UHGV virus genome: UHGV-0126638
Length of the DNA: 23,813 nucleotides
Source of the DNA: a virus
Strand: one strand, 5' to 3'
Of this stretch, positions 691-22,829 are shown one piece after another. Position 1 is the first letter of the stretch; each line of letters opens with the position of its first letter. The notes under the pieces are model-generated. The model was given only the letters and a program-made list of their open reading frames with translations, made no database searches and was not told the origin of the DNA. Made by a program: the position numbers and the translations under genes.

Positions 691-1743
691 TTACGGGGTA
701 ATGCCAACCGCTGCCGCCACTTTGTCGCCACTTGGCAGCGTTGCCAGAGGATTGAAACGGAGCGCCGTTTCCAGATGATCCGGTGCCAGATGAGCGTAAC
801 GCATAGTCATTTTTATATCGTGATGTCCGAGGATTTTTTGCAAAGCAAGGATATTTCCACCCGACATCATGAAATGCGCCGCAAACGTATGGCGCAGAAC
901 GTGTGTCAGTTGACCGCGAGGGAGCACGATTGACGTTTTTTCCATCACGGATAAAAATTGAAAATAGCAGTCTGTGAAGAAATTGAACCCATCAAGCGCC
1001 ATGATCTCTTCATAAAGCTCTTTACTGATAGGGATGCTTCTGTTTTTCTTCCCCTTCGTTCTTACAAAGGTAATTCGGTATTTAGTCACCTGTGATCGGG
1101 TAAGGTTTATTGCTTCTCGCCAGCGTGCGCCTGTGCTTAAGCATATCTTGACTACCAGTGCCAGAATTGGGTCCTGACGTTTGCAATCAGCCAGCAGTTC
1201 AACAATCTGCTCATGGGTAAGCCATGCCATCTCTTTTTCTGCGATGGTGAATTTTCGCATGTTCTCCAGTGGGTTTGGATACGACCATTCGCCCAGGCGG
1301 GATAGTTCGCTAAAAACACTACTTAGATAGCTTTGCTCCAGGTTAATGGTGACCGGGCTTGCTCCTTTCTTCCATTTCTCGCTGAAGTAGATCTCACCAG
1401 TCAGGCGTTTATCTCGATAGTGGGCAAACATTTTAGAGGTGAGATCGGTTGCAAGGGGATTGCCCAGAGCGTCAACCATCAACAGCAATTTATCATAGAC
1501 ATGCTGCCCAGCGGTTAGAGATTTACCATGTAGTTTGAACCATAGCTCAACCACGTCTTTCAGTGTTCGACGATCCACTGATTCTCCCAGCCAGGGCTTT
1601 GCTTCGGTTTCTTCCATCGTATGGCGCTCAAAAGCCAGAGCTTCGCCTTTGGTGGCGAATTGTTTACGCACACGACGCCCACTACGTCCGGCGGGGTAAC
1701 ATTCGCAAAGCCATTTTCCTGTGGTGAGTTTTCGTACTGCCAT
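691..1743 (-). CDS. int: Tyrosine integrase, P2/186 family
   Basis: ORF 691..1821; start trimmed to ATG at 1743 (MAVRKLTTGKWLCECYPAGRSGRRVRKQFATKGEALAFERHT...), which parallels the P2 Int N-terminus as I recall it. C-terminal catalytic region motifs LSTGARWREA, HVLRHTFAAHFMMSGG and MRYAHLAP (R, H-x-x-R, Y). GGAGGG Shine-Dalgarno upstream. Confidence 0.9.
   Translation of the reverse strand: MAVRKLTTGKWLCECYPAGRSGRRVRKQFATKGEALAFERHTMEETEAKPWLGESVDRRTLKDVVELWFKLHGKSLTAGQHVYDKLLLMVDALGNPLATDLTSKMFAHYRDKRLTGEIYFSEKWKKGASPVTINLEQSYLSSVFSELSRLGEWSYPNPLENMRKFTIAEKEMAWLTHEQIVELLADCKRQDPILALVVKICLSTGARWREAINLTRSQVTKYRITFVRTKGKKNRSIPISKELYEEIMALDGFNFFTDCYFQFLSVMEKTSIVLPRGQLTHVLRHTFAAHFMMSGGNILALQKILGHHDIKMTMRYAHLAPDHLETALRFNPLATLPSGDKVAAAVGITP
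709..730. repeat. 22-bp direct repeat CGCTGCCGCCA(C/T)TTTGTCGCCA, left copy inside the int 3' end; alternative att core or arm-type site
   Basis: 21 of 22 identity with 20909-20930. The left copy encodes the int C-terminal residues GDKVAAA; the right copy begins directly after the ogr stop codon. Confidence 0.45.
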
Positions 1744-1929
1744 AAAAAATGCCCTCCAATAGAGAGCATTTTTACTGTATGTATAACCAGTGTCAATGTA
1801 TGAAATCCTGCGACCATACATCTCACTGAAGCCATAATGAAGTTGGCTATTTTTTGCTATGTGAGTATGTGACTTTTGCGGTTAGCCTGCGACTCATTGT
1901 TATATTAGGCGCAGATATAAAAGCAAAAT

Positions 1930-2136: not shown

Positions 2137-2706
2137 TTACCTAACGTACTTAATTGTTAAACTTATAATTTTCCCAATTATTTCAACATCTTCTATCTTG
2201 CACTCGAAGGCTCTGTTTCCACCTTCAACGAAGATTCTTCCACCGGGTAAACGAGTAATGTCGCGGATTGTTATTTCGCCATCAATACTTATTACCCATT
2301 TACCGTCACGTATATCATCAAATTCTTTATCACAAATAAATTCAGAATTGTTATCTGTGATGACAAAAGGTTTTTTAAACGTAGAGGGTAGAAATCCCTT
2401 ATCAAAAATATAAAAACCGTCTTCACGCAAGGCACCATCAGATAATACATATTTAGCAACTTCCATAGTATTTGTATTACCTGAAGTTTGCTTTGAACCA
2501 TGTCCGGTTGTGAGCCAATTAAGCGAGGTGCCCGTTTCAAGGGCGCACTGGATTACCCATTCTGCTGGGAATGAGTCACGCATGTAGCGTGTGGCGAGTG
2601 TACTTTTAGAGATTCCTAAATGATCGCACAACGCCTGTCGAGTTTTGAATCCATAAGCTTCTACCATGCGCTCTATAGCGCCTCGTCCGCCTTTCTCCAA
2701 ATTCAT
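2137..2706 (-). CDS. Phage 186-type CI-like immunity repressor
   Basis: ORF 2137..2712, start taken at ATG 2706 with GGAG upstream. About 190 aa, divergent from the Apl/CII operon, N-terminal HTH-like region (KTRQALCDHLGISKSTLATRYMR). Size and position match 186 CI as I recall it. Confidence 0.75.
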   Translation of the reverse strand: MNLEKGGRGAIERMVEAYGFKTRQALCDHLGISKSTLATRYMRDSFPAEWVIQCALETGTSLNWLTTGHGSKQTSGNTNTMEVAKYVLSDGALREDGFYIFDKGFLPSTFKKPFVITDNNSEFICDKEFDDIRDGKWVISIDGEITIRDITRLPGGRIFVEGGNRAFECKIEDVEIIGKIISLTIKYVR

Positions 2707-2730
2707 GGTCACTCCAAGTGAACTTTTATC

Positions 2731-3053: not shown

Positions 3054-3085
3054 TTCGATTCTGAAATACATCAGAGGCATTGACC

Positions 3086-3595
3086 ATGTTTGATTACCAA
3101 GTTTCCAAACATCCACATTTTGATGAAGCCTGTCGTGCATTCGCATTGCGCCACAACCTAGTGCAACTGGCAGAACGTGCAGGCATGAATGTGCAGATTC
3201 TGCGGAACAAGCTGAACCCAGCTCAACCTCATTTATTAACCGCACCAGAAATCTGGTTGCTTACCGATCTGACTGAAGATTCAACGCTGGTAGATGGCTT
3301 TCTGGCACAGATTCACTGCCTGCCATGTGTACCGATTAATGAGGTGGCAAAAGAGAAACTGCCGCATTACGTCATGAGTGCAACTGCAGAGATAGGGCGT
3401 GTCGCGGCAGGTGCGGTTTCTGGCGATGTAAAAACCAGTGCAGGCCGTCGTGATGCGATCAGCAGCATTAACTCTGTTACACGACTGATGGCGCTGGCTG
3501 CTGTTTCATTGCAGGCCCGTTTACAGGCTAATCCTGCGATGGCGAGTGCAGTTGATACCGTGACTGGCCTCGGTGCTTCATTCGGTTTGCTGTGA
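3086..3595 (+). CDS. Phage 186 CII-like transcriptional activator
   Basis: Translation from ATG 3086 ([45 protein letters not shown]...[28 protein letters not shown]...) closely resembles my recollection of 186 CII (169 aa). AGAGG Shine-Dalgarno 7 nt upstream. Confidence 0.8.
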
Positions 3596-4957: not shown

Positions 4958-5184
4958 TGGCTGATGCAATGGATCTCGTACAGCAGCGCGTTGAAGAAGA
5001 ACGCCAGCGCCATATCCGTTCTGCCCGTGCCAAAACGCCGGGCGTGTCCCGCGTGCTTTGCATTGAGTGTGAAGCGCCAATTCCGCCAGCACGCCGCCGT
5101 GCCATTCCGGGTGTGCAGCTTTGCATTACCTGTCAGGAAATCGCAGAGCTGAAAGGCAAACATTACAACGGAGGTGCTGTATGA
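4957..5184 (+). CDS. TraR/DksA-family C4 zinc-finger protein
   Basis: 75 aa with the spacing CIECEAPIP...CITCQ (C-x2-C ... C-x2-C) typical of phage and plasmid TraR-like proteins; AGGAG Shine-Dalgarno; stop overlaps the dam start. Confidence 0.7.
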   Translation: MADAMDLVQQRVEEERQRHIRSARAKTPGVSRVLCIECEAPIPPARRRAIPGVQLCITCQEIAELKGKHYNGGAV

Positions 5185-6038
5185 GCACCATCCTGAAATG
5201 GGCGGGAAATAAAACTGCCATAATGTCAGAACTGAAAAAACATCTTCCTGCTGGCCCGCGACTGGTTGAACCTTTCGCGGGTTCCTGTGCTGTGATGATG
5301 GAGACGGATTATCCCAGTTATCTGGTTGCGGATATTAATCCTGATTTAATCAACCTCTATAAAAAGGTTGCCGCTGATTGTGAATCGTTTATATCTCGCG
5401 CCAGAGTTTTATTTGAGATCGCAAACAGGGAGGTGGCTTATTACAACATAAGGCAGGAGTTTAATTACTCAACTGAAATTACTGATTTCATGAAAGCGGT
5501 ATATTTCCTGTATCTCAATCGTCACGGTTACCGTGGTTTATGTCGCTATAACAAGAGCGGGCATTTCAATATTCCCTACGGTAATTATAAAAATCCGTAT
5601 TTCCCTGAAAAAGAAATTCGCGCATTTGCAGAGAAAGCCAAGCGGGCAACGTTTATCTGCGCGAGCTTTGATGAAACGCTGGCGATGCTGCAGGTGGGGG
5701 ATGTGGTGTATTGCGATCCGCCGTATGACGGTACGTTTTCCGGCTATCACACTGATGGTTTCACTGAAGATGACCAGTATCACCTGGCATCCGTTCTTGA
5801 ACATCGGTCATCAGAAGGACATCCGGTCATTGTTTCTAACAGTGACACATCCCTGATCCGTTCGCTGTATCGCAATTTTACTCACCACTACATCAAGGCA
5901 AAACGCAGCATCGGCGTAGCAGCTGGTGAGAGTAAATCTGCAACAGAAATCATCGCTGTTTCCGGGCCGCGCTGCTGGGTGGGATTTGATCCTTCGCGTG
6001 GAGTGGATAGTTCTGCCGTGTACGGAGTGCGTGCATGA
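5181..6038 (+). CDS. DNA adenine methyltransferase, Dam (GATC) family, phage-encoded
   Basis: Translation from ATG 5181 ([11 protein letters not shown]... FAGS ... DPPY) carries the N6-adenine MTase motifs: AdoMet-binding FxGxG-like region and catalytic DPPY. Start after GGAGG; ATGA overlap with gene A. Confidence 0.8.
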
Positions 6039-8449
6039 GCCATGCTGATATGAACAACTGCAGCGGCTTTAACGAGGTCGCCGCAGCATTCTCATGGAAC
6101 AGCCCGAAAAAGGCCATTAACCCTTATCTGGACCCGGCGGAAGTTGCGCCGGTTTCTGCGCTTTCAAACCTGATCACTCTGTACGCTGTCGATAACGAGC
6201 AGGAACAACTGCGCCGCGAGGCACTGAGTGATCAGGTCTGGGAGCGTTATTTCTTTAATGAATCCCGTGATCCTGTCCAGCGCGAAATGGAGCAGGATAA
6301 ACTTATTAGCCGGGCAAAGCTGGCGCATGAGCAGCAGCGTTTTAATCCAGATATGGTCATTCTGGCGGACGTCAATGCCCAGCCTTCCCATATCAGCAAG
6401 CCGCTGATGCAACGTATTGAATACTTCAGCAGCCTGGGCAGGCCAAAGGCTTATTCCCGCTATTTGCGTGAGACGATTAAGCCATGTCTGGAACGACTGG
6501 AGCATGTACGCGACTGTCAGCTATCCACTTCTTTTCGCTTTATGGCAAGCCATGAAGGGCTGGACGGCCTGCTGATCCTGCCTGAAATGAGTCAGGATCA
6601 GGTGAAGCGCCTGTCTACCCTTGTCGCCGCGCATATGAGCATGTGCCTTGATGCAGCTTGTGGTGATTTGTATGCCACCGATGACATTAAGCCAGAAGAA
6701 ATCCGCAAAACATGGGAAAAGGTGGCAGCGGAAACCCTGCGTCTGGATGTTATCCCGCCTGCGTTTGAGCAACTCCGTCGGAAAAGAAACCGCCGTAAAC
6801 CCGTGCCTTATGAACTCATTCCGGGTTCGCTGGCGCGTATGTTATGCGCCGACTGGTGGTATCGGAAATTATGGAAGATGCGTTGCGAATGGCGGGAAGA
6901 GCAGTTGCGTGCTGTTTGCCTGGTCAGCAAAAAAGCATCTCCCTATGTCAGCTATGAAGCCGTGATGCATAAACGTGAGCAGCGCCGTAAGTCGCTGGAG
7001 TTTTTCCGTTCTCATGAACTGGTGAACGAAGACGGCGACACGCTGGATATGGAAGACGTGGTAAACGCCAGCAGCAGCAACCCTGCACATCGCCGCAATG
7101 AGATGATGGCCTGTGTTAAAGGTCTGGAGCTTATCGCGGAAATGCGCGGTGACAGCGCCGTTTTCTACACCATCACCTGTCCGTCACGTTTCCATTCCAC
7201 GCTAAATAACGGCAGGCCCAACCCGACCTGGACAAATGCGACGGTAAGACAAAGCAGTGATTATCTGGTCGGTATGTTTGCTGCATTTCGTAAGGCGATG
7301 CACAAAGCCGGATTACGCTGGTATGGCGTGCGGGTGGCTGAGCCGCATCATGACGGTACAGTTCACTGGCACCTGTTGTGTTTTATGCGCAAAAAAGATC
7401 GCCGCGCCATTACTGCTTTGTTGCGTAAGTTTGCCATTCGTGAAGACCGCGAGGAGCTGGGTAATAACACGGAACCACGCTTTAAGTCTGAGCTGATAAA
7501 CCCGCGCAAAGGTACGCCAACAAGCTACATCGCGAAATACATCAGTAAGAACATTGACGGGCGTGGTCTGGCTGGCGAGATCAGCAAGGAAACGGGTAAA
7601 TCCCTGCGTGATAACGCTGAATACGTTAATGCCTGGGCGTCTCTGCATCGTGTTCAGCAATTCCGCTTCTTTGGCATTCCGGGGCGTCAGGCTTACCGTG
7701 AACTGCGATTGCTGGCTGGTCAGGCGGCAAGGCAACAGGGGGGCAAAAAAGCAGGTGCGCCGGTACTGGATAACCCGCGCCTTGATGCCATCCTGGCCGC
7801 TGCTGATGCTGGTTGTTTTGCCACCTACATCATGAAGCAGGGCGGCGTACTGGTTCCCCGCAAATATCACCTCATCAGAACCGCTTATGAAATCAACGAA
7901 GAGCCGACCGCCTATGGCGATCACGGTATTCGTATTTATGGCATCTGGTCACCCATTGCAGAGGGCAAGATCTGCACTCATGCGGTGAAGTGGAAAATGG
8001 TTCGTAAGGCCGTTGACATTCAGGAGGCGGCAGCCGACCAGGGCGCTTGCGCCCCTTGGACTCGTGGCAATAACTGTCCCCTTGCTGAAAATTTGAACCA
8101 ACAAGGGAAAGACAAATCAGCTGATGGGGATACCAGAACGGATATCACCCGCATGGATGACAAGGAGTTGCACGATTACCTGCACAGTATGAGCAAAAAA
8201 GAGCGCCGGGAACTGGCAGCAAGGTTACGCCTGGTTAAACCGAAACGGCGTAAAGACTACAAACAGCGAATTACAGATCATCAGCGACAGCAGCTCGTCT
8301 ATGAGCTGAAGTCCAGAGGATTTGATGGTAGCGAGAAAGAGGTCGATTTACTCCTTAGCGGCGGCAGTATTCCGTCAGGAGCAGGCCTGCGTATCTTCTA
8401 TCGGAACCAGCGTTTGCAGGAAGATGATAAGTGGCGGGATCTGTATTAA
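6035..8449 (+). CDS. A: P2 gpA-like replication initiation protein (rolling-circle endonuclease)
   Basis: 804-aa ORF downstream of the early genes; size and position match P2 A. An HxH-type motif (VHWHLL) and a Tyr-containing motif (YIAKYISK) fit a rolling-circle initiator. Confidence 0.8.
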
Positions 8450-8541
8450 TTACGCGGGTTAACAATTCGTGCTCTTAATAATACCAGGCATATCAGGCTG
8501 ATGAACGTAAAAAAACGTTTTACATCAGTAAGATTATTATA

Positions 8542-8561
8542 TACTGTGAATATAAACAGTG
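8542..8561. promoter_or_regulatory. LexA (SOS) box TACTGTGAATATAAACAGTG
   Basis: CTGT-N8-ACAG with an AT-rich centre, 17 of 20 matches to the LexA consensus TACTGTATATATATACAGTA, in an AT-rich promoter-like region about 40 bp upstream of ORF 8602. Confidence 0.6.
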
Positions 8562-8601
8562 GTTATGTATACAGTATTGCTTTGGTGTTATAGGAGGAAA
8601 G

Positions 8602-8790
8602 ATGCAGGACTATTTTTTGGAGTCTTTGAAGCTCCAGCGCATTGATTTTTTTCTTAAGCTTGTAGCGGCTAGTGAGTGTAGTGATGAAGAGAAGGGGCTG
8701 GCTTTGCAGTGGGTTTCTGAACTGACAGATGAACTCATGGCAAAAATCAGAAGCCACGAATACAACCGCTCAATGGATGTCATCAGCTGA
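8602..8790 (+). CDS. Small protein, possible N-terminal part of a Tum-like antirepressor (62 aa)
   Basis: ATG 8602 with AGGAGG 4 nt upstream, directly downstream of the LexA box. Together with the DinI-like ORF it spans 433 nt, about the size of phage 186 tum (~146 aa) as I recall it. Confidence 0.5.
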   Translation: MQDYFLESLKLQRIDFFLKLVAASECSDEEKGLALQWVSELTDELMAKIRSHEYNRSMDVIS

Positions 8791-8800
8791 GGTGACTTTT

Positions 8801-9034
8801 ATGCGCATTGAAATAATGATCGATAAAGAGCAGAAGATTAGCCAGTCTACCCTGGACGCCCTTGAATCCGAGCTTTACCGCAATCTGCGCCCCCTATATC
8901 CCAAAACGGTAATTCGTATCCGTAAAGGTAGCTCTAACGGTGTGGAACTGACCGGACTGCAACTGGATGAAGAAAGAAAACAAGTGATGAAAATTATGCA
9001 GAAGGTGTGGGAAGACGACAGCTGGCTGCATTGA
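8801..9034 (+). CDS. DinI-family protein (Tum C-terminal-like)
   Basis: Translation from ATG 8801 (MRIEIMIDKEQKISQSTLDALESELYRNLRPLYPK...KIMQKVWEDDSWLH) aligns by eye along its whole length with E. coli DinI. GAGGTGA Shine-Dalgarno 5 nt upstream. Confidence 0.75.
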   Translation: MRIEIMIDKEQKISQSTLDALESELYRNLRPLYPKTVIRIRKGSSNGVELTGLQLDEERKQVMKIMQKVWEDDSWLH

Positions 9035-9087
9035 TTTTGTCAATAGATGCTTGTTTTTAATACTTAAAAAGGGTTACATATGAGTGA

Positions 9088-9121
9088 GAGGTGATGTCAA
9101 TCAGATATCACCTCGTTTTTT
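9088..9121 (+). terminator. Rho-independent terminator after the DinI-like gene
   Basis: Inverted repeat GAGGTGAT...ATCACCTC followed by GTTTTTT. It overlaps the 5' extension of ORF 9091..9825, so that extension is unlikely to be coding. Confidence 0.5.
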
Positions 9122-9147
9122 GTCAAGAAAAGAATAATAGGCTAAAA

Positions 9148-9825
9148 ATGAAAATTAACCATATTGCGTTACCTATATCTCTTGCTGTAATCCTAACTGG
9201 TTGCGTGCCTCATGCTTCTAACCGAAATATCACAGCTATTGAAGTGGTGAAGCCTGCTATTGGGCAAAGTGCTACAGCCTACATGGGCGACCCCATCATA
9301 ACATCTGCTACTGGATATAAAACGGACGTACTAGAGCTTGGTGCGGCTAATGGTGCGCTATCTTCTATCTCTGCAGGTACATATTGCAGCGAAGGGAATG
9401 GAATTTACCGCAATCATCATAATTCTCAAGCTGTTGCGCTAAAAAATATCTATGGACAAATCGGCACCTATGTTGATTATGTAAGTTACGATGCTGCAAA
9501 AAATGAGATATCACCACCAAACGGCACTTCTTATACAGCCTCAGAAATTTCTATCAAGCGTGTTCCTGATGGGCTGTGTCGAGTGAGTAACTCATTGGTT
9601 AAGACTATCGAATACAATGGAAATGCAGGCGGTGTAATGAAGTTTACCTATCGTGAGTTTGCAAACGATATGGCTCGTGCAGCGTTTACAACAGATTTTT
9701 CTGTAGATTCGAAGGGAAGTGATGTTATCGCTTACAAAGGAGCCAAGTTCAAAGTGAACAAGGCTGATAACTCGTCTATTTCCTATACAATTATTTCTGG
9801 CTTTGACAAGGCTGTCACGTTCTAG
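9148..9825 (+). CDS. Lipoprotein of unknown function (moron); possible superinfection-exclusion or surface protein
   Basis: Translation from ATG 9148: MKINHIALPISLAVILTGC, a signal peptide with lipobox LTGC. The mature ~205 aa is rich in S, T, G, N and Y (beta-rich appearance). No homolog recalled. Confidence 0.65.
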   Translation: MKINHIALPISLAVILTGCVPHASNRNITAIEVVKPAIGQSATAYMGDPIITSATGYKTDVLELGAANGALSSISAGTYCSEGNGIYRNHHNSQAVALKNIYGQIGTYVDYVSYDAAKNEISPPNGTSYTASEISIKRVPDGLCRVSNSLVKTIEYNGNAGGVMKFTYREFANDMARAAFTTDFSVDSKGSDVIAYKGAKFKVNKADNSSISYTIISGFDKAVTF

Positions 9826-9929
9826 ATTTCACGCTTGCTGAGTATGTTACGATTTTGCACATTCTGCATAAACGCGCATGTCTATGCTGCATGAGATCGC
9901 ATGATCGTTTGAGGATCTTTTGTGTTAAG

Positions 9930-9954
9930 GCCCGCCAGTTCTGGCGGGCTTTTG
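9930..9954 (+). terminator. Rho-independent terminator downstream of the lipoprotein gene
   Basis: Perfect 9-bp stem GCCCGCCAG / CTGGCGGGC around TT, followed by TTTTG. Confidence 0.55.
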
Positions 9955-9998
9955 CGTAGATCATGCAGGTGCATGAAAACCACTACATAAAGCGGGCA

Positions 9999-10017
9999 GG
10001 CGTGGCGGGGATACGAG
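9999..10017. other. cos-like site (candidate cohesive-end sequence) GGCGTGGCGGGGATACGAG
   Basis: The first 13 nt match the 19-nt cohesive ends of phage 186 (GGCGTGGCGGGGAAAGCAT) and 12 of them P2 (GGCGAGGCGGGGAAAGCAC), as I recall them; the last 6 nt diverge. It is followed by CGCGCGC, as at the P2 left end. Confidence 0.4.
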
Positions 10018-10084
10018 CGCGCGCAACGGGTTGTCATTCAAACTCCAATGCTATAAAACTGTGTAATACAAACAACTAAAGTAG

Positions 10085-11839
10085 GTGGCCTCAGTGGAAC
10101 TGCAAGCAAATGCTCGAACCTTAACAAACGTGTTATCTGTAAATAAAAAATATATAGTCCCTAGATTCCAAAGAGAATATTCTTGGGGGAAGGAACAAGT
10201 AAGTGAACTTTGGCATGATATAGTTTCCAATATTCATTACCAGGAGGATGGGCAGTATCAATATGATGAGTATTTCATCGGTGCTCTCGTTTTGGTCGGG
10301 CAGGAAACTAGCTCTGAGCTGATGATTGTAGATGGTCAACAACGTCTTACGACTCTTACTATATTGTTATCAGCATTATGTGATAAATTTAAGTTGATAA
10401 ATGAGTTGGCTGTAGCTCAATCAATATATAATAATTATATATCTGGTATGGATGACGATGGCAGACCTTTTTTTAAATTAGTTAATGAAACTCCTAAGCC
10501 ATACTTTCAAAACAACATTCAGCATATTGATAAGAGAAATGAAGGACCGGAGTCCCTTGAAGAAAGAAACTTGCAATCTTCATATAATGATTTAACTGAG
10601 TATCTTTCAGAAGATAATCTTTGCCAGACATTAGGAGTAGATAGAGAGAAATTTATCTACTTGGAAGCGTTGAAGGCTGTGCGGGATCAAGTTCTACGGT
10701 ATCTGAAAGTGATTTATATTACAGTTAATGATGAAGATGAAGCTTATACAATCTTTGAAACTCTGAATGCTAGGGGATTAAACTTAAGTTATGTAGATCT
10801 TATAAAAAACAAATTATTTAAGAAACTGAATGGCACACATCCTGATGATGATGCAAAAACTAAATGGAATAAAATTAGGCAAATAATTGCTAGTCGTAAT
10901 GGTGTCGGTTCTATCGAGACATTTATCCGTCATTGGTGGGTGTCAAAATATTCTTATGTAAGTAGTGACACTCTTTATAAAGCTTTTCTGGATAAGTGGA
11001 AAAAAGGCGACATTGATGCTTCAGCGTTCATTGATGAGCTACTTTCAGATGCCGAGATATATGTGAAAATATCATCGCCTACAGAACAGGATTTTCCTGA
11101 ACTGGAAATGAAACCAGTTTATCGAGGTTTGCAGGCATTAAGGCTGTTTAACATATCTCAGAATAAACCATTTTTGTTATCTTTATTTAAGGCAAGAGCA
11201 AGAGGAACGCTAAAACTTGTTGATATGAATAATGCAGTGCTGTCAATTGAACGCTTTCATTTTATGTTTAATGCTATTTGTTCATTGCGACCATCAGGTA
11301 TTGAAAGTGCGTATGCTAAAGCTGCTAGGGCTTTAGTGGATGAAGGTTCTACTAAAGCTAGTAATAGACAAGTAATAAAGTCTTTGCTTGAAATGTTGGT
11401 GAAGAGAAAACCAGACATTAATATGTTTGTTGAAAAGTTTGTTATGCTTAAATTTTCAAATCAAGAGTTGAAAAATAAAAGGTTGATTCAGTACATTTTT
11501 AATAGACTTGAGTTACATCACATGAAAACGGGGGAGTATATGCCTGATTCATTAACATTAGAGCATATTCAGCCTCAGAGTGTGGGGGATTCTGAAGTAT
11601 ATAGCATGATAGGAAATTTATTACCACTTTCAAAAGAATTAAATGAAAAAGCTGGAAATAAGTCTGTTGTGGATAAGCTTGAAATTTATAAACAATCACA
11701 ATATGCGCTAGTTAAAATTTTTATTGATGAATTTGAAAATAAATATCAAGGAGAATGGACGCCCGATCATATGAGGTCAAGAGCTGCTGAACTAAGTATT
11801 TTATCGTATAATTCAGTATGGAAATTGGGGCGTGAGTAA
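10085..11839 (+). CDS. DUF262 (ParB-like, DGQQR) plus DUF1524 (His-Me/HNH-like) protein; GmrSD/BrxU/SspE-type candidate modification-dependent nuclease
   Basis: 584-aa ORF (GTG start at 10085; alternative GTG at 10094 after AGGTGG). N-terminal FQREYSW and DGQQR at codons 83-87 (nt 10331-10345) are DUF262 hallmarks; C-terminal LEHIQPQS...GNLLPLSKELNEKAGNKS is DUF1524-like. The gene is markedly AT-rich compared with flanking phage genes. Confidence 0.75.
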   Translation: MASVELQANARTLTNVLSVNKKYIVPRFQREYSWGKEQVSELWHDIVSNIHYQEDGQYQYDEYFIGALVLVGQETSSELMIVDGQQRLTTLTILLSALCDKFKLINELAVAQSIYNNYISGMDDDGRPFFKLVNETPKPYFQNNIQHIDKRNEGPESLEERNLQSSYNDLTEYLSEDNLCQTLGVDREKFIYLEALKAVRDQVLRYLKVIYITVNDEDEAYTIFETLNARGLNLSYVDLIKNKLFKKLNGTHPDDDAKTKWNKIRQIIASRNGVGSIETFIRHWWVSKYSYVSSDTLYKAFLDKWKKGDIDASAFIDELLSDAEIYVKISSPTEQDFPELEMKPVYRGLQALRLFNISQNKPFLLSLFKARARGTLKLVDMNNAVLSIERFHFMFNAICSLRPSGIESAYAKAARALVDEGSTKASNRQVIKSLLEMLVKRKPDINMFVEKFVMLKFSNQELKNKRLIQYIFNRLELHHMKTGEYMPDSLTLEHIQPQSVGDSEVYSMIGNLLPLSKELNEKAGNKSVVDKLEIYKQSQYALVKIFIDEFENKYQGEWTPDHMRSRAAELSILSYNSVWKLGRE

Positions 11840-16733: not shown

Positions 16734-17384
16734 ATGAGCCTGAGTCCCGCACGGCAGCATCGCCTGCGCGTTCAGGCTGAACAGGCCGCTCGCGAGGGTG
16801 GCAGTGTTCGCCACGCGTCGGGCTATGACCTGATGCTGCTGCAACTGGCGGAAGACCGCCGCCGTCTCAAGGGCGTTCAGTCCACGGTCAAAAAAGCGGA
16901 AATCAAAGTGGAGCTGCTGCCGAAGTACGCCGCCTGGGCAGAGGGTGTCCTGGCTGCCGGAGGCGCTCAACAGGATGACGTGCTGATGTACGTGATGCTG
17001 TGGCGCATTGATGCCGGAGATTATGCCGGGGCGCTGGAGATCGGGCGTCATGCCCTGCGTCATGGCTGGGTGATGCCGCTGGGTAACCGCAACGTGCAGA
17101 CCGTGCTGGCAGAGGAAATGGCAGATGCAGCGCAGAGCGCAATGCTTGCCGCAACCGGCTTTGATGCCGATCTGTTGCTGCAGACGCTGGAGCTGACAGA
17201 CGGTCTGGATATGCCGGACCAGTCACGGGCGCGTCTGCATAAAGCGATTGGCGCTGTCCTGAGTGAAAGCAATCCGGCTTCCGCCCTTAATCATCTCAAC
17301 CATGCGTTACAGCTCGATCCCCGCTGTGGCGTGAAAAAAGACAAACAGCAGCTGGAGCGCAGACTGCGCAATGACAGCCGCTGA
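16734..17384 (+). CDS. M: Terminase small (endonuclease) subunit, P2 gpM family
   Basis: 216 aa immediately after N; conserved segments (LRHASGYDLML, GAQQDDVLMYVMLWRIDAGDYAGALEIGRHAL) resemble P2 gpM. Confidence 0.82.
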   Translation: MSLSPARQHRLRVQAEQAAREGGSVRHASGYDLMLLQLAEDRRRLKGVQSTVKKAEIKVELLPKYAAWAEGVLAAGGAQQDDVLMYVMLWRIDAGDYAGALEIGRHALRHGWVMPLGNRNVQTVLAEEMADAAQSAMLAATGFDADLLLQTLELTDGLDMPDQSRARLHKAIGAVLSESNPASALNHLNHALQLDPRCGVKKDKQQLERRLRNDSR

Positions 17385-17479
17385 CAGAACGTGCCCCCGC
17401 GCACGGGCGGCACGGGGTGGCGAAAGGCACAGCCACATCAAAACCCCGTCCACCGCCCTCTATCTCAGGAGAAAGCAGC

Positions 17480-17761
17480 ATGAAGTTTGTTGCGCCAGAA
17501 CAGGCACCGGAACAGGCGGAAATCATCAGAAATACGCCGTTCTGGCCTGATGTGGACCTGTCGGAGTTTCGCAGTGTCATGCGCACTGACGGCACGGTGA
17601 CGCAGCCGCGTTTAAAGCAGGTTGCGCTGTCGGCAATTTCGGAGGTTAACGCAGAGCTGTATGAGTTTCGCAGACGCCAGCAGATGCTGGGGTATGCGTC
17701 GCTGGCTGAGGTTCCGGCGGAACAGCTGGACGGGAAAAGTGAGCGCATTTCCGAAGCCTGA
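17480..17761 (+). pseudogene. L: Head completion protein gpL, C-terminally truncated
   Basis: Start at ATG 17480 with AGGAGAAAG upstream; NTPFWPDVDL...AELYEFR...LAEVPAEQLDG parallels the P2 gpL N-terminal half. The ORF ends at about 93 aa against about 169 aa for P2 gpL as I recall it. Confidence 0.6.
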
Positions 17762-17952
17762 CTGACAGTATTGATACCAGCACCCCAATGGGTCGTTTCT
17801 TTTTTCATGTCATGGGGGCCCTGGCTGAAATGGAACGCGAACTGATAGTTGAACGTACCATGGCAGGGCTGGCTGCAGCTCGTGCCAAAGGCAGAGTAGG
17901 TGGACGCCGTCCTAAGTTGACCACCGAACAGTGGGCACAGATTGGGCGTTTA
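17746..17952 (+). pseudogene. Internal fragment of a Hin/Gin/Pin-type serine DNA invertase gene (about 69 codons)
   Basis: The frame translating HFRSLTDSIDTSTPMGRFFFHVMGALAEMERELIVERTMAGLAAARAKGRVGGRRPKLTTEQWAQIGRL matches the central-to-C-terminal region of Hin-family invertases nearly residue for residue. The catalytic N-terminus and the C-terminal HTH are both absent. Confidence 0.7.
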
Positions 17953-19020
17953 TCCGGTTTACGTGCTGTTGCTGTGATGTTTATGAATCCTCTGGCGGTA
18001 CTGCGCGGTGGACTGGCCGCCGCAGGCACGGTGCTGCGAGTACTGGCATCTGGTCCACTGGCGATGCTGCGCGTTGCCCTGTATGCCATATCTGGTCTGT
18101 TAGGTGCTCTGCTCAGTCCGATAGGTCTTGTGGTTACTGCACTGGCGGGCGTGGCGCTGGTTGTTTGGAAATACTGGCAACCCATCACCGCATTTCTCGG
18201 TGGCGTGGTGGAAGGATTCAAAGCTGCGGCAGGTCCCATCAGTGCAGCGTTCGAACCGCTTAAGCCCGTGTTCCAGTGGATTGGCGACAAAGTGCAGGCG
18301 CTGTGGGGCTGGTTTACTGATCTGCTGACGCCCGTTAAGTCGACCTCTGCCGAACTGCAGAGCGCAGCGGCAATGGGGCGACGATTCGGGGAGGCACTGG
18401 CAGAAGGGCTGAATATGGTCATGCATCCGCTGGACTCCCTGAAATCCGGCGTTTCCTGGTTGCTGGAGAAACTCGGCATTGTCAGTAAAGAGGCTGCAAA
18501 GGCGAAACTGCCGGAAAGCGTGACGCGTCAGCAACCTGCGACGGTGAATGCAGACGGTAAAGTGATGATGCCATCGGGTGATTTTCCGTCATGGGGATAT
18601 GGCTTTGCGGGGATGTATGACAGCGGCGGCTATATCCCGCGCGGGCAGTTTGGCATCGTCGGTGAAAACGGGCCGGAAATTGTTAACGGCCCGGCAAACG
18701 TGACCAGCCGGAGAAATACAGCTGCACTGGCTGCCGTTGTCGCCGGAATGATGGGTGTTGCTGCCGCGCCAGCAGAGCTTCCACCGTTGCATCCTTTGGC
18801 GCTTCCCGCAAAAGGCGGTGAAGCGATGGTGAGTCGTGCAGCTACTGTGCCGCCCATTTACCGGATTGAAGCACCGACGCAGATCATCATCCAGACACAG
18901 CCAGGACAAAGTGCGCAGGATATTGCGCGGGAGGTGGCCCGCCAGCTTGATGAACGTGAACGCAGGCTGAAGGCAAAAGCCAGGAGTAACTACAGCGATC
19001 AGGGGGGATACGACGCATGA
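17953..19020 (+). pseudogene. T: C-terminal portion of the tail tape-measure gene (gpT-like), fused in frame to the invertase fragment
   Basis: Continues the same ORF (17788..19020) into Ala/Gly/Leu-rich sequence typical of tape-measure proteins and ends overlapping the gpU start. The N-terminal part of T and all upstream tail genes are absent. Confidence 0.6.
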
Positions 19021-19502
19021 TGATGGTGCTGGGATTGTACGTGTTTATGCTGCGCACCGTGCCGTATCAGGAGCTGCAGTATCAACGCAGCTGGCGACAT
19101 GCGGCAAACAGCCGGGTAAACCGACGTCCGTCCACGCAGTTTCTGGGACCGGACAACGACATGCTGACGCTTTCCGGTGTTCTTATGCCGGAGATAACAG
19201 GTGGCAGGCTGTCGTTGCTGGCACTGGAGCAGATGGCAGAACAGGGGAAAGCATGGCCCCTGATTGAAGGCAGTGGCACGATTTATGGCATGTATGTGAT
19301 TGAGGGACTGAATCAGACTAAAACGGAGTTTTTCCGCGACGGTATGCCGCGCCGGATTGAGTTCACCCTGTCGCTCAAACGGGTGGATGAATCCCTGTCC
19401 GATATATTCGGTGATCTCAGTGCGCAACTGAATAATCTGCAGGACACAGCAACGTCTGCCTTAAGCGATATCAGTAAAACGGTGGGAGGGCTGCTGTCAT
19501 GA
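19017..19502 (+). CDS. U: Tail protein, P2 gpU family
   Basis: 161 aa, between the tape-measure remnant and D; size and order as in P2. Confidence 0.8.
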   Translation: MMMVLGLYVFMLRTVPYQELQYQRSWRHAANSRVNRRPSTQFLGPDNDMLTLSGVLMPEITGGRLSLLALEQMAEQGKAWPLIEGSGTIYGMYVIEGLNQTKTEFFRDGMPRRIEFTLSLKRVDESLSDIFGDLSAQLNNLQDTATSALSDISKTVGGLLS

Positions 19503-20599
19503 ATTTCAGCTCTGAACTGCTTAACAAAGGCAACAAAACTCCCGCATTCAGCATCAGTATTGAGGGCAGGGATATCACCACTGTGCTGGATAACCGCCTG
19601 ATGAGTTTGACGCTGACGGACAATCGGGGCTTTGAAGCGGACCAGCTTGATCTGGAGCTGGACGACGCCGACGGAAAAATCGTGCTGCCGCGCCGTGGTG
19701 CGGTTATTACGCTGGCGCTGGGCTGGAAGGGGCAGCCGCTTTTCCCGAAAGGGGCATTCACGGTGGACGAGATTGAACACACTGGCGCACCGGACCGCCT
19801 GACTATCCGGGCGCGAAGTGCTGATTTTCGTGAAACGCTGAATACCCGCCGTGAAAAGTCGTGGCACAAGACCACCGTCGGGGAAGTGGTGAAGGAAATA
19901 GCTGTGCGGCACAAACTGAAGATGGCATTGGGTAAAGACCTGTCAGATAAACCCGTGGAACATATAGACCAGACCAATGAGAGTGACGGCAGTTTTCTGA
20001 TGCGGCTGGCGCGCCAGTACGGTGCTATTGCGTCGGTGAAAAATGGCAATCTGTTATTCATCCGGCAGGGACAGGGTAAAAGCGCCAGCGGTAAACCACT
20101 ACCGGTTATCACTATCACACGTAAGGACGGCGACAGTCACCGCTTTACCCTGGCAGATCGCGGAGCCTACACGGGCGTAATTGCCAGCTGGTTGCATACC
20201 CGCGAACCCGCGAAGAATGAAAGCACCACGGTGAAGCGTAAGCGCAGGACTAAGAAGCAGAAGAAAGAGCCGGAAGCGAAGCAGGGCGATTACCTGGTGG
20301 GTACAGATGAAAACGTGCTGGTACTTAATCGCACCTATGCCAACCGGAGCAACGCCGAACGGGCGGCGAAAATGCAGTGGGAACGCCTGCAACGCGGCGT
20401 TGCGTCATTCTCGCTACAACTGGCAGAAGGTCGGGCAGATCTCTACACGGAAATGCCAGTGAAAGTCAGTGGCTTTAAACAGCCGATAGATGATGCGGAA
20501 TGGACCATTACGACTCTGACGCATACCGTCAGCCCCGATAACGGTTTTACAACCAGTCTGGAGCTTGAAGTGAGGATTGATGATTTCGAAATGGAATGA
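19499..20599 (+). CDS. D: Tail protein, P2 gpD family
   Basis: 366 aa, immediately upstream of ogr; size and order as in P2. Confidence 0.8.
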   Translation: MNFSSELLNKGNKTPAFSISIEGRDITTVLDNRLMSLTLTDNRGFEADQLDLELDDADGKIVLPRRGAVITLALGWKGQPLFPKGAFTVDEIEHTGAPDRLTIRARSADFRETLNTRREKSWHKTTVGEVVKEIAVRHKLKMALGKDLSDKPVEHIDQTNESDGSFLMRLARQYGAIASVKNGNLLFIRQGQGKSASGKPLPVITITRKDGDSHRFTLADRGAYTGVIASWLHTREPAKNESTTVKRKRRTKKQKKEPEAKQGDYLVGTDENVLVLNRTYANRSNAERAAKMQWERLQRGVASFSLQLAEGRADLYTEMPVKVSGFKQPIDDAEWTITTLTHTVSPDNGFTTSLELEVRIDDFEME

Positions 20600-20689
20600 T
20601 TCTTCGCAATGGAGAACTTTTAAGTTTGCAAAATGGAATAATGCGGTATCATTATTGTGAATTTAGCAAAAATGGGGAGAACTCGAAAA

Positions 20690-20908
20690 ATGATGATTTG
20701 CCCACTGTGTGGAAGTGCCGCCCATACTCGCAGCAGTTTTCAGGTATCTTCATTGACCAAAGAACGTTACAACCAGTGCCAGAACATTAACTGCAGCCAT
20801 ACTTTTGTTACCCATGAAACTTTTGTTCGTTCGATTGCAACGCCAAAAGAGTCAAATCCGGTTCAGCCGCATCCAATGAAATCAGGACAGGTGGCGCTCT
20901 CTCTTTGA
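20690..20908 (+). CDS. ogr: Ogr/Delta-family zinc-finger late transcription activator
   Basis: Translation from ATG 20690 (MMICPLCGSAAHTRSSFQVSSLTKERYNQCQNINCSHTFVTHETF...) has the C-x2-C ... C-x4-C pattern and strongly resembles P2 Ogr (72 aa). GGGGAGA Shine-Dalgarno upstream. Confidence 0.88.
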   Translation: MMICPLCGSAAHTRSSFQVSSLTKERYNQCQNINCSHTFVTHETFVRSIATPKESNPVQPHPMKSGQVALSL

Positions 20909-21143: not shown

Positions 21144-22829
21144 TTATCCTAATCCTGGCCATACCATGACGATGATTGTCCCTGCCAGCGTCAGCAGGAC
21201 GTTGGCGATTGCATAGGTGCCCGCATAGCCCAGCGCCGGGATGTTACTGCGAGCTGTATCACTGATGATCTCCATTGCCGGCGCGCAGGTACGTGCGCCC
21301 ATCATTGCGCCGAACAACAGCGCGCGGTTCATTCGCAATACATAAGCACCGAACAAGAAACAGATAACCACGGGCACCAGACTGACAATCAATCCGGCAA
21401 TCAACATCTGACCGCCAATCGCGCCCAGGCCGTTATTAATACCGCTACCGGCGCTCAGACCAACGCCTGCCATAAACACCATCAAGCCGAACTCTTTCAC
21501 CATGCTTAATGCACCCTGCGGAATGTAACCGAAGGTCGGGTGGTTAGCACGCATAAAGCCCAGCATAATTCCGGCGAATAACAACCCGGCAGCGTTCCCC
21601 ATGCCGAAACTGAATGTGCTGAACTGGAAGGTGATCATCCCGATCATCAGCCCAATAACAAAGAAGGCGCAGAATGCCAGCAGGTCAGTGACCTGGCTGT
21701 GAATCGAGATAAAGCCGATGCGATCGGCGATGGTTTTTACGCGACGGGCATCACCGCTGACTTGTAAAACGTCACCTTTGTTAAGCACGACGTTGTCATC
21801 TATCGGCATCTCAATCTGGCTACGAATGACGCGGTTAAGGAAGCAACCGTGATCGGTCAACTTCAGTTGTGCGAGACGTTTACCTACAGCGTTATGGTTT
21901 TTAACGACCACTTCTTCAGTGACGATACGCATGTCGAGAAGGTCACGATCGAAAACTTCTTTACCGTTACGGAAGCTGGGATCGAGTCGGGCATGGGCGT
22001 CGGGATAGCCTACCAACGCTATTTCATCGCCCATTTGTAGCACGGCATCACCGTCTGGATTTGCCAGAATCCCGTTACGTCGAATACGTTCAATGTAGCA
22101 GCCGGTTTGTCGATAAATACCCAGTTCACGCAGATTTTTGCCGTCGGTCCAGGCCACCAGCTCCGGGCCGACGCGATAGGCGCGGATCACCGGTAAATAA
22201 ACCTTACGGTTGGCATCAGTGTCCAGGCCACGTTCGCGGGCGATTTGCTGGGCGCTGGTCTGTAAGTCCTGATGCTGCAATTTCGGCAAGTAACGCGCAC
22301 CAACAATCAAACTCACCAGACCGATTAAATAGGTTAAGGCATACCCGAGGCTCAGATTATCCAGTGCCAGTGAGAGCTGCCTGCTTTCCATGCCGGAATG
22401 ACGCAGTGTATCGCCAGCACCGACCAGAACCGGTGTCGACGTCATAGAGCCTGCTAACATACCGGCCGTCAGGCCAATATCCCAGCCAAACAGCTTACCT
22501 AACCCTAAGGCGATCACCAGCGCACTGCCAACCATCACCAGTGCTAACATTAGGTAATTTTTCCCATCGCGAAAAAAAATGGAAAAAAAGTTCGGTCCGG
22601 CTTCAACCCCAACACAGAAAATAAACAGCATAAAGCCAAGATTAAGCGCATCGGTGTTAATGCTGAAATGTTGTTGGCCTAATAACAGCGATACGACTAA
22701 AACGCCAATGGAATTACCCAGTTGGATCGAACCAAGTCGTAACTTTCCGAGACATAGCCCAAGCGCGAGGACCACAAATAATAACAGAATGTAATTCCCA
22801 TTTAACAATTCGGCGACGTTTATATTCAC
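21144..22829 (-). CDS. ybjL: Putative transport protein YbjL (AAE family)
   Basis: 561-aa polytopic membrane protein with a central soluble region; sequence and length match E. coli YbjL as I recall it; synteny with ybjM and grxA. Start codon appears to be GTG. Confidence 0.88.

Follow-up and report, generated by a model that had tools for sequence, protein, structure and literature searches.

A mobile lipoprotein gene at the end of the SOS operon of a 186/Fels-2-type prophage, with a possible role in superinfection exclusion at the envelope

Organisation of the prophage and its SOS module

The stretch of DNA analysed here (the window; UHGV virus genome UHGV-0126638, 23,813 nucleotides) is a 186/Fels-2-type P2-like prophage. 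It carries genes for an integrase (691-1821, minus strand), a 186-type CI (2137-2712, minus strand), CII (3080-3595), a Dam methylase (5121-6038) and the replication protein gpA (6035-8449), and, in the cos-Q hotspot described in PMC9122126, a plus-strand gene at 10085-11839 for a GmrSD-type (DUF262/DUF1524) type IV restriction-like defence protein (Pfam GmrSD_N 1e-38, GmrSD_C 1.2e-11; PADLOC HEC-06 3.8e-90). The portal, terminase and head genes lie 3′ of the GmrSD gene, the portal gene coming first, and the prophage is defective, most of its tail genes having been lost.

Downstream of gpA is a run of plus-strand features headed by a putative p95-like SOS promoter (8519-8547), whose -35 hexamer TTTACA (8519-8524), 17-nt spacer and -10 hexamer TACTGT (8542-8547) match the geometry of p95 as annotated in phage 186. 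The sole exact match to CTGT-N8-ACAG in the window, a LexA box (CTGTGAATATAAACAG, 8544-8559), overlaps the -10 hexamer, as in 186 p95, whose -10 likewise reads TACTGT. The first gene behind this promoter (8602-8790) encodes 62 residues, matches phrog_698 (unknown function) at 5.9e-38, corresponds to Fels-2 STM2728 and is a CDS in both the Fels-2 and the E. coli RefSeq annotation; its product was not found to resemble the N-terminal half of 186 Tum. The second gene (8801-9034) encodes a 77-residue DinI-family protein that resembles the C-terminal part of Tum (Pfam DinI 1.2e-22; 41% identity to residues 71-145 of 186 Tum, E 3e-24). The exact LexA box, together with this likeness to the C-terminal half of Tum, bears out the first-pass annotation of the window, which had placed the lipoprotein gene studied here next to an SOS-controlled tum/dinI locus.

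A swappable cassette of about 840 bp (9034-9873, plus strand, GC 0.40), carrying the lipoprotein gene, comes next. Ahead of the gene, at the position of 186 t95a, is a hairpin (9088-9114; 11-bp stem, dG -17.6, z -4.2), which with its T-run extends to 9120. Past the cassette, at the position of 186 t95b and within the cos-proximal backbone, a GC-rich hairpin (9927-9952; inner stem 9927-9937/9942-9952, dG -23.6 kcal/mol, z -4.9) is followed by TTTTG. The 19-nt cohesive-end sequence of cos, GGCGTGGCGGGGATACGAG (9999-10017, plus strand), aligns to the annotated cos of P2 and of 186, with GGCG-GGCGGGGA and the GCGCGC after it conserved relative to those phages. The terminator and cos that had been said to stand between the lipoprotein gene and the DUF262 gene are thus real features of the locus. 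A scan of 8400-10200 against Rfam gave no match.

A well-conserved gene for an exported lipoprotein

The lipoprotein gene occupies 9148-9825 on the plus strand, from an ATG at 9148, also the start in RefSeq, to a stop codon at 9823-9825, and encodes 225 residues; a modest Shine-Dalgarno sequence, TAGG, lies 8 nt 5′ of the ATG. A GTG start at 9091, which gives the 243-residue protein of the Fels-2 record, was rejected, and the start taken as 9148, because that GTG lies inside the upstream hairpin, RefSeq uses the ATG and the median position of the lipobox cysteine across the family is 18.

Lipoprotein signals were judged by a positively charged n-region, a hydrophobic h-region and a lipobox of the form [LVI][ASTVI][GAS]-C within about 15-35 residues. 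The N-terminus of the protein, MKINHIALPISLAVILTGC, has a lysine in its n-region, a hydrophobic core and the lipobox L-T-G-C, and with Cys19 it satisfies the PROSITE PS51257-style lipoprotein rule. Residues 1-18 are thus the predicted signal peptide, Cys19 (encoded at 9202-9204) is the predicted site of lipidation, and the mature domain is predicted to be all-beta. The lipobox is common to 229 of the 254 full-length family members, and on these grounds we regard the assignment of the product as an exported lipoprotein as secure. The residue after the cysteine is never Asp in the family and is Val in the protein from the window; from this +2 position sorting to the outer membrane is likely.

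The mature protein, of about 21 kDa, consists of A 11.7%, S 10.7%, G 8.7%, N 7.3%, T 7.3% and Y 6.3% among its more frequent residues. It had been called rich in Ser, Thr, Gly, Asn and Tyr, which is roughly right, those residues making up about 40% of it, and the canonical signal and the AT-richness that had been claimed for the gene also stand: the GC content of the ORF is 0.419 and its GC3 0.342, against 0.527 and 0.566 for gpA.

The gene is the Fels-2 gene STM2726, and copies in Fels-2, in Klebsiella Kapieceevirus phages and in E. coli prophages are 95-99.9% identical to it at the DNA level, with dN/dS of 0.06-0.08 for the comparisons with Fels-2, Klebsiella Kapieceevirus and E. coli copies. 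The ORF is unbroken in hundreds of contigs. It is therefore a real, well-conserved gene under strong purifying selection, even though every source annotates it as "hypothetical protein" and the one PHROGs family that its product matches, phrog_1353 (4.5e-102), is listed as of "unknown function".

A variable slot between the SOS module and cos

When the locus is aligned with prophages whose slot is empty or holds other cargo, similarity breaks off at the stop codon of the DinI gene and is found again from about 9874 (GTGCATGTCTATGC...), and from these two break-points the cassette is taken as approximately 9034-9873. The SOS module is present in 1,281 of 5,426 complete E. coli genomes, the lipoprotein gene in only 50. 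Forty of the 1,286 matching E. coli records were sampled at even spacing; 13 of them had an empty slot (span about 815 bp), eight a different insert of about 0.7 kb and one a larger insert. The alternative inserts include a DUF8087 gene (in E. coli B) and a gene for 141 residues, both on the opposite strand, and prophages with an empty slot, the DUF8087 gene, the 141-residue gene or the lipoprotein gene have identical flanks. The accessory slot that had been proposed beside tum/dinI does therefore exist, as a variable site between the SOS module and cos. In the sense of Juhala/Hendrix (Cumby et al. 2012, PMC3594210), a moron is extra DNA present in some of a set of collinear phages, with a base composition unlike that of its neighbours, and the lipoprotein gene agrees with this description on both counts. 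The definition also includes a promoter and a terminator of the gene's own, where the indications set out below point to read-through from the SOS promoter. We conclude securely that it is horizontally acquired, AT-rich, mobile single-gene cargo.

The backbone block at about 9874-10024, with the hairpin 9927-9952, is kept in a prophage with an empty slot (locus L014), in two further prophage loci (L015 and L016) and in Fels-2. This hairpin is a backbone feature, found with an empty slot as well as with other cargo, and so, contrary to what had been supposed, is not a terminator of the lipoprotein gene's own. The site between cos and Q has its own, differing contents: GmrSD in the window, a two-gene system in L017, retron St85 in E. 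coli B, a TIR/SEFIR gene in Buttiauxella and nothing in L016. Because the cos-Q and DinI-cos slots vary independently, the lipoprotein gene and the DUF262 gene are separate cargo, in agreement with the independence originally suggested for them.

Transcription of the lipoprotein gene

In the record of phage 186 (NC_001317) the order of features is p95 with its LexA site, tum, t95a, orf97, t95b and the right genome end; p95 is described there as "SOS-dependent transcription of SOS operon", t95a as "partial termination of p95 transcript" and t95b as "p95 transcript terminator". The same type of order is met in the window, as a LexA box over a promoter, a Tum/DinI-like gene, a hairpin, the slot gene, a second hairpin and cos. 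As this layout copies the 186 SOS operon, the lipoprotein gene is probably the distal, read-through gene of a LexA-controlled operon.

The copies in E. coli, Salmonella, Klebsiella and Buttiauxella keep every base pair of the hairpin 9088-9114, and at two pairs both bases have changed in compensation; as four sequences only are compared, the support for the structure is modest. A close relative of the lipoprotein gene in a non-phage context is not preceded by such a hairpin, which suggests that the hairpin belongs to the phage operon and not to the lipoprotein gene. The T-run and the ATG are only 27 nt apart, and no convincing promoter was found between the hairpin and 9148. Sigma-70-like matches occur at 9037-9064 (TTGTCA-16-AATACT), which is 5′ of the hairpin, and at 9120-9149, which overlaps the start codon; with 7 promoter-like matches in the region against 4.0 +/- 2.0 expected from shuffled sequences, their number is not clearly above chance. 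The match at 9037-9064 could nevertheless give constitutive expression of the lipoprotein.

Expression data are available for the Fels-2 counterparts. In Fels-2 Salmonella treated with the mutagen MX, a microarray study found the genes of the predicted operon STM2726-STM2727-STM2728 all up-regulated at p<=0.01, STM2727 by 14.8-fold and the weakest gene by 2.6-fold, the latter value belonging to STM2726 or STM2728, which are not distinguished, and this was the only operon of that Fels-2 tag range in the MX table (PMC2225428). The array result is compatible with read-through and with a separate damage-responsive promoter alike. From the 186 precedent, the association of the hairpin with the phage operon, the poor placement of the promoter matches and the co-induction of STM2726-28, we infer that the lipoprotein is probably expressed mainly by partial read-through from the LexA-controlled promoter. 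The same observations (no convincing promoter, the 186 operon layout and co-induction by 2.6- to 14.8-fold) make it doubtful that the gene is an autonomous moron, as it was first described.

A large family of mobile lipoproteins

An HMM search found 2,430 cluster representatives (clustered at 50% identity) at E<=1e-3 and 1,246 at E<=1e-10, almost all of them 215-240 residues long. Members that carry names come from Enterobacterales, Acinetobacter, Moraxella, Psychrobacter, Aeromonas, Vibrio, Shewanella, Pseudoalteromonas and Methylotuvimicrobium and are annotated only as "hypothetical" or "lipoprotein". A word-indexed search had returned few relatives, in part because the 90% cluster of the query is wrongly merged with IlvE transaminases, and the sole match in a scan of species genomes was one Erwinia locus, seen with a second alignment, the first being too divergent.

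Relatives are encoded on 254 IMG/VR viral contigs. The relative has the tail tube/chaperone genes on one side and the tape-measure gene on the other in Acinetobacter phage Ab1656-2 and Moraxella phage Mcat28, and likewise in Acinetobacter prophages and a Klebsiella prophage. Of 21 distant viral contigs, 10 carry, on the same strand, an ORF of at least 900 residues 0.7-3.1 kb 3′ of the relative, and three more, with their ends cut off, share the upstream gene pattern. Six of these long ORFs were sampled: three are tape-measure proteins by Pfam, and the other three exceed 1,000 residues and have an internal SLT domain, as is found in many tape-measure proteins. Elsewhere, Psychrobacter and Shewanella relatives sit at the cargo end of integrase/primase islands that resemble phage satellites, and those of Klebsiella, Pantoea and Citrobacter are in recombinase-bounded islands, where they adjoin OLD-like or AbiC-like genes; TIR/SEFIR genes also adjoin some relatives, and one Vibrio relative is placed amid toxin-antitoxin cassettes and IS110 elements. 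A few relatives are in ordinary chromosomal settings with no phage or defence genes nearby, such as a close relative beside CS1-type fimbrial genes (locus L028) and one beside housekeeping genes in Methylotuvimicrobium. Phage, satellite and defence islands are the dominant contexts of the family. No recurrent partner gene was seen next to family members in the loci inspected, which suggests a single-gene function.

The AF2 model of the lipoprotein (pLDDT 87.2, pTM 0.70) has an all-beta mature domain with no significant structural match to any solved protein fold, and a sequence profile search of the PDB gave nothing below E 0.25. Searches with known families were likewise negative: there were 0 Pfam families at E<=1, the Bor, TraT and immunity families included, no match in NCBIfam and no defence family of PADLOC-DB v2 at E<=0.1, and homology to Llp, Cor, Rtp45, Bor or TraT was not found in the Pfam, PHROGs and PADLOC searches. 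The lipoprotein defence gene of Vassallo et al. (PMC9519451) was considered as a counterpart, and the PADLOC models gave no match to the lipoprotein from the window. A Pfam scan of 71 distant and nine longer relatives added nothing useful. Some of these longer relatives owe their length to mis-called starts, and the remainder have the same architecture with a larger middle insert and an ordinary signal peptide.

Conservation across the family covers the signal, the lipobox, a short N-terminal motif (P36, G39, G47-D48) and, most strongly, the last 70 or so residues, in which Y156, G158, Y168-R169-E170-F171, R177, D187, Y196-K197-G198-A199, N208, Y213 and F219 are invariant or nearly so. Residues from about 55 to 150 are variable among relatives and greatly enlarged in some. 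Besides the lipobox cysteine, C80 and C144 are invariant in the close family, which is consistent with an oxidising compartment. The family is large and uncharacterised, has neither a Pfam model nor a recognisable solved fold, and occupies a known kind of niche.

Comparison with known envelope proteins of phages

The nearest positional counterpart is orf97 of phage 186, annotated in the 186 record with the words "expression from plasmid blocks 186 infection" (for the gene and its operon: Brumby et al. 1996, Virology 219:105, as cited in PMC5322425). Like the lipoprotein gene, orf97 follows tum/DinI, stands behind a hairpin at the partial-terminator position and before a second terminator and cos, and is served by a LexA-repressed type of promoter. 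The two products are of similar size (243 and 225 residues) and both appear envelope-protein-like, Orf97 having two predicted N-terminal hydrophobic segments; unlike the lipoprotein, Orf97 does not have a lipobox-type signal peptide. The lipoprotein was rejected as an Orf97 homologue, BLASTP giving no alignment at E<=100.

Llp of T5, Cor of the phi80/N15/HK022 group and Rtp45 of Rtp are phage-encoded outer-membrane lipoproteins that face the periplasm and block infection at the envelope (PMC12685063, PMC9586334), Llp and Rtp45 by binding the phage's own protein receptor (PMC12685063). The proteins of this group, which bind FhuA or LptD and are encoded next to a receptor-binding protein gene, are of about 6-8 kDa (Llp and Rtp45 about 6), whereas the lipoprotein has about 21 kDa when mature, with a conserved core and a variable middle, shows no linkage of its gene to a tail-fibre gene and belongs to no annotated Pfam or PHROG family. 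[quoted passage not shown] However, gp15, which has no homology to the protein studied here, is a small protein of the inner membrane and is not a lipoprotein, and the gene in the window is in the right-end slot of a myophage and not in a tail operon. Lambda Bor and plasmid TraT resemble the lipoprotein as prophage- or plasmid-borne accessory lipoproteins of the outer membrane (the location of ours being the predicted one), but their hosts are animal-associated bacteria, in which they act in surface exclusion or resistance to serum, whereas the lipoprotein family is spread over environmental Gammaproteobacteria.

A proposed role in superinfection exclusion

We propose, tentatively and at a little under an even chance, that this protein, processed by Sec, Lgt and LspA and encoded by the distal gene of the tum operon, acts most likely in superinfection exclusion at the envelope. 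DNA damage would bring about transcription from the LexA-repressed p95-like promoter; part of this transcript would read through the hairpin 9088-9114, as at 186 t95a, cross the lipoprotein gene and stop at the backbone hairpin before cos. The processed protein would then carry about 10 tether residues ahead of its all-beta domain, and could keep incoming phage out at the envelope at the time when repressor immunity has been lifted by the Tum-type antirepressor. An exclusion function expressed from the antirepressor's own transcript would thus cover the gap in immunity that arises once CI is inactivated. Exclusion is plausible by analogy, because of the phenotype of the slot gene of 186, the gp15-type location of relatives and the company of defence genes in which the family is found.

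Some features of the protein and its family speak against exclusion. There is no homology to characterised exclusion proteins and no PADLOC match, and Llp and Rtp45 have only about a third of the lipoprotein's size; some relatives, such as those of L028 and Methylotuvimicrobium, are in places without phage or defence genes. P2-type phages are generally held to use LPS, and a periplasmic lipoprotein cannot mask LPS. Receptor masking, the mechanism first suggested, gains no support from the searches for homology to Llp, Cor, Rtp45, Bor or TraT.

A broader proposal, possible rather than probable, is that the whole lipoprotein family of the Gammaproteobacteria, of which this protein would be the first member to be recognised, serves as a general single-gene defence against phage at the envelope, built on an all-beta fold without a match. 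Its core, P-x2-G-x7-G-D together with the C-terminal YREF...R...D...YKGA...N, would carry a variable module in the middle, which would intercept phage in the periplasm, for example through the tape-measure or ejection proteins. Temperate phages, satellites and defence islands would exchange the gene, whose SOS wiring in 186/Fels-2-type phages would let exclusion replace repressor immunity as Tum inactivates CI.

Alternative explanations

How the gene is expressed and what its product does are to some extent separate matters: that it is an autonomous moron, with its own promoter, constitutive in the repressed prophage, insulated by the 9088-9114 terminator and acting as a lysogenic-conversion factor in the resting lysogen, seems to us unlikely, though deserving of serious consideration, and would leave room for exclusion as the function of the protein. 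The hairpin 9088-9114 with its T-run does resemble an efficient intrinsic terminator, the cassette has a GC content unlike that of its flanks, and relatives in siphophage tail operons and islands must have expression of their own. Of the two sigma-70-like matches that could serve such a gene, however, the one at 9037-9064 is 5′ of the hairpin, so its transcripts would meet the terminator too, and the other overlaps the start codon, in a region where such matches number little beyond those in shuffles; the downstream terminator belongs to the backbone and not to the cassette, and both the 186 precedent of read-through and the co-induction of STM2726-28 argue for the operon. The timing that an SOS operon would impose is also what a lytic-cycle helper would need, that is, a protein made at induction that alters the outer membrane for release or prevents waste of progeny on debris and induced cells, and preventing non-productive adsorption to infected cells and debris is described for exclusion factors (PMC12685063), a second role of this kind being ascribed to T5 Llp. 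Such a helper is improbable here: most prophages of the same backbone do without the gene, so it is not needed for the lytic cycle; the ORF has stayed whole in the window, where most tail genes of the prophage are gone; and relatives occur in islands that make no virions.

A role at the envelope with no connection to phage, as an immunity protein against a periplasm-acting toxin (a bacteriocin, tailocin or T6SS effector) or as a Bor/TraT-like surface or serum-resistance factor, would be of an established kind, as are immunity lipoproteins and conversion lipoproteins of the Bor/TraT type (Bor is cited in PMC3594210). The Vibrio relative among toxin-antitoxin cassettes and IS110 elements and the close relative beside fimbrial genes would suit it, and the conserved polar residues Y156, R169, E170, R177, D187, K197 and N208 suggest a specific ligand. 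We think it rather unlikely nonetheless, as Pfam gives no match to the Bor, TraT or immunity families at E<=1, no toxin gene is consistently adjacent in the loci inspected, and phage, satellite and defence islands dominate the contexts; the spread of the family over free-living marine and cold-environment Gammaproteobacteria further argues against a role in virulence towards an animal host. That the ORF is merely a decaying or non-functional hitch-hiker, as the bare "hypothetical" annotation and the defective state of the prophage might suggest, is refuted as far as sequence analysis reaches, by the dN/dS of 0.06-0.08, the intact ORF in hundreds of contigs, the family-wide lipobox and the confident structure prediction.

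Implications for P2-like phages and for the lipoprotein family

In most recent work the region from gpA to gpQ of P2-like phages is treated as one defence hotspot (PMC9122126, PMC9519451). Our comparison resolves it into two independently assorting slots divided by cos, of which the left slot, holding the membrane-protein-like Orf97 in 186 and the lipoprotein here, is wired to the LexA-controlled antirepressor operon. Should the lipoprotein have no effect on phages, it would still be a widespread mobile lipoprotein. If our proposal of exclusion is true, it would put a name to a large family that lacks annotation and escapes current defence finders, would add a new fold to those used for exclusion at the envelope, and would supply a rationale for the SOS coupling of such a gene, in that exclusion would be switched on when immunity is switched off.

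The DinI-to-cos slot and its alternative occupants

The variable cargo site between the DinI/Tum-like gene and cos, in which the lipoprotein gene lies, is filled differently in related prophages. In the E. coli B prophage it holds a gene for a 111-aa DUF8087 protein (L015 2278-2613), and in a second comparison prophage one for a 141-aa hypothetical protein (L016 2245-2670); both are encoded on the opposite strand, so that read-through from the SOS promoter 5′ of the DinI gene cannot express them. Phage 186 itself carries orf97 (L034 2105-2836), which according to its annotation prevents infection by 186 if it is supplied on an expressing plasmid. The N-terminal part of Orf97 contains two hydrophobic segments, VIAFLSLALFIAFIVGLI and CLALGVIGSILW, and on this account it is probably a membrane protein; the slot seems to favour envelope proteins.

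Between the DinI gene and the lipoprotein gene, a sigma-70-like match (TTGTCA-16-AATACT, 9037-9064) lies just 5′ of 9088-9120, where the conserved hairpin is followed by its T-run, and the 9037-9120 region has no match in Rfam. If both elements are functional, their product would be a ~50-nt RNA, or else the lipoprotein mRNA would have the hairpin as a 5′ leader structure.

A separate cargo gene beyond cos, in a defective prophage

Between cos and the portal gene lies a GmrSD-type gene (10085-11839; DUF262 plus DUF1524), which is matched by PADLOC HEC-06 (3.8e-90) and has a GC content of 0.344. This gene is cargo separate from the lipoprotein gene, within the published P2 defence hotspot.

As the region 16734-20800 shows, this prophage is a deletion derivative. 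The terminase small subunit gene (16734-17384) is followed by a partial head-completion gene and then by a fusion ORF (17788-19020), in which a C-terminal fragment of a DNA invertase (residues 1-56) is joined to the last ~350 residues of a tape-measure protein. Next are two tail genes, U (19017-19502) and D (19499-20599), and host genes begin at 21144 with ybjL (21144-22829, minus strand), past which lies ybjM. The junction near 17750-17790 was contiguous in none of the 5,426 complete E. coli genomes searched. Most of the tail and lysis genes are absent, and therefore the lipoprotein and GmrSD-type genes have been kept intact in a phage that is unable to make virions.

Relatives of the lipoprotein in databases and other phages

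The exact protein of window 9148-9822 belongs to a 90%-identity cluster of 1,023 members, which is represented by IlvE, a 308-aa branched-chain amino-acid transaminase. The lipoprotein and IlvE are unrelated and their shared cluster is a clustering artefact, because of which our first homology search missed the lipoprotein's own cluster.

The tail operon of Acinetobacter phage Ab1656-2 (L004 4091-4857) contains, directly 5′ of the relative of the lipoprotein gene, a DUF4258 gene and an HTH gene that together look like a toxin-antitoxin pair; these genes form a small accessory island located between the tail genes and the tape-measure gene. In two IMG/VR viral contigs (L095 and L099), the relative is immediately preceded by an ORF of ~860 aa, ~2.7 kb upstream of the match, for which Pfam gave no match. 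Were this ORF a gpA-like replication gene, it would place the lipoprotein family in a P2-like arrangement in another lineage.
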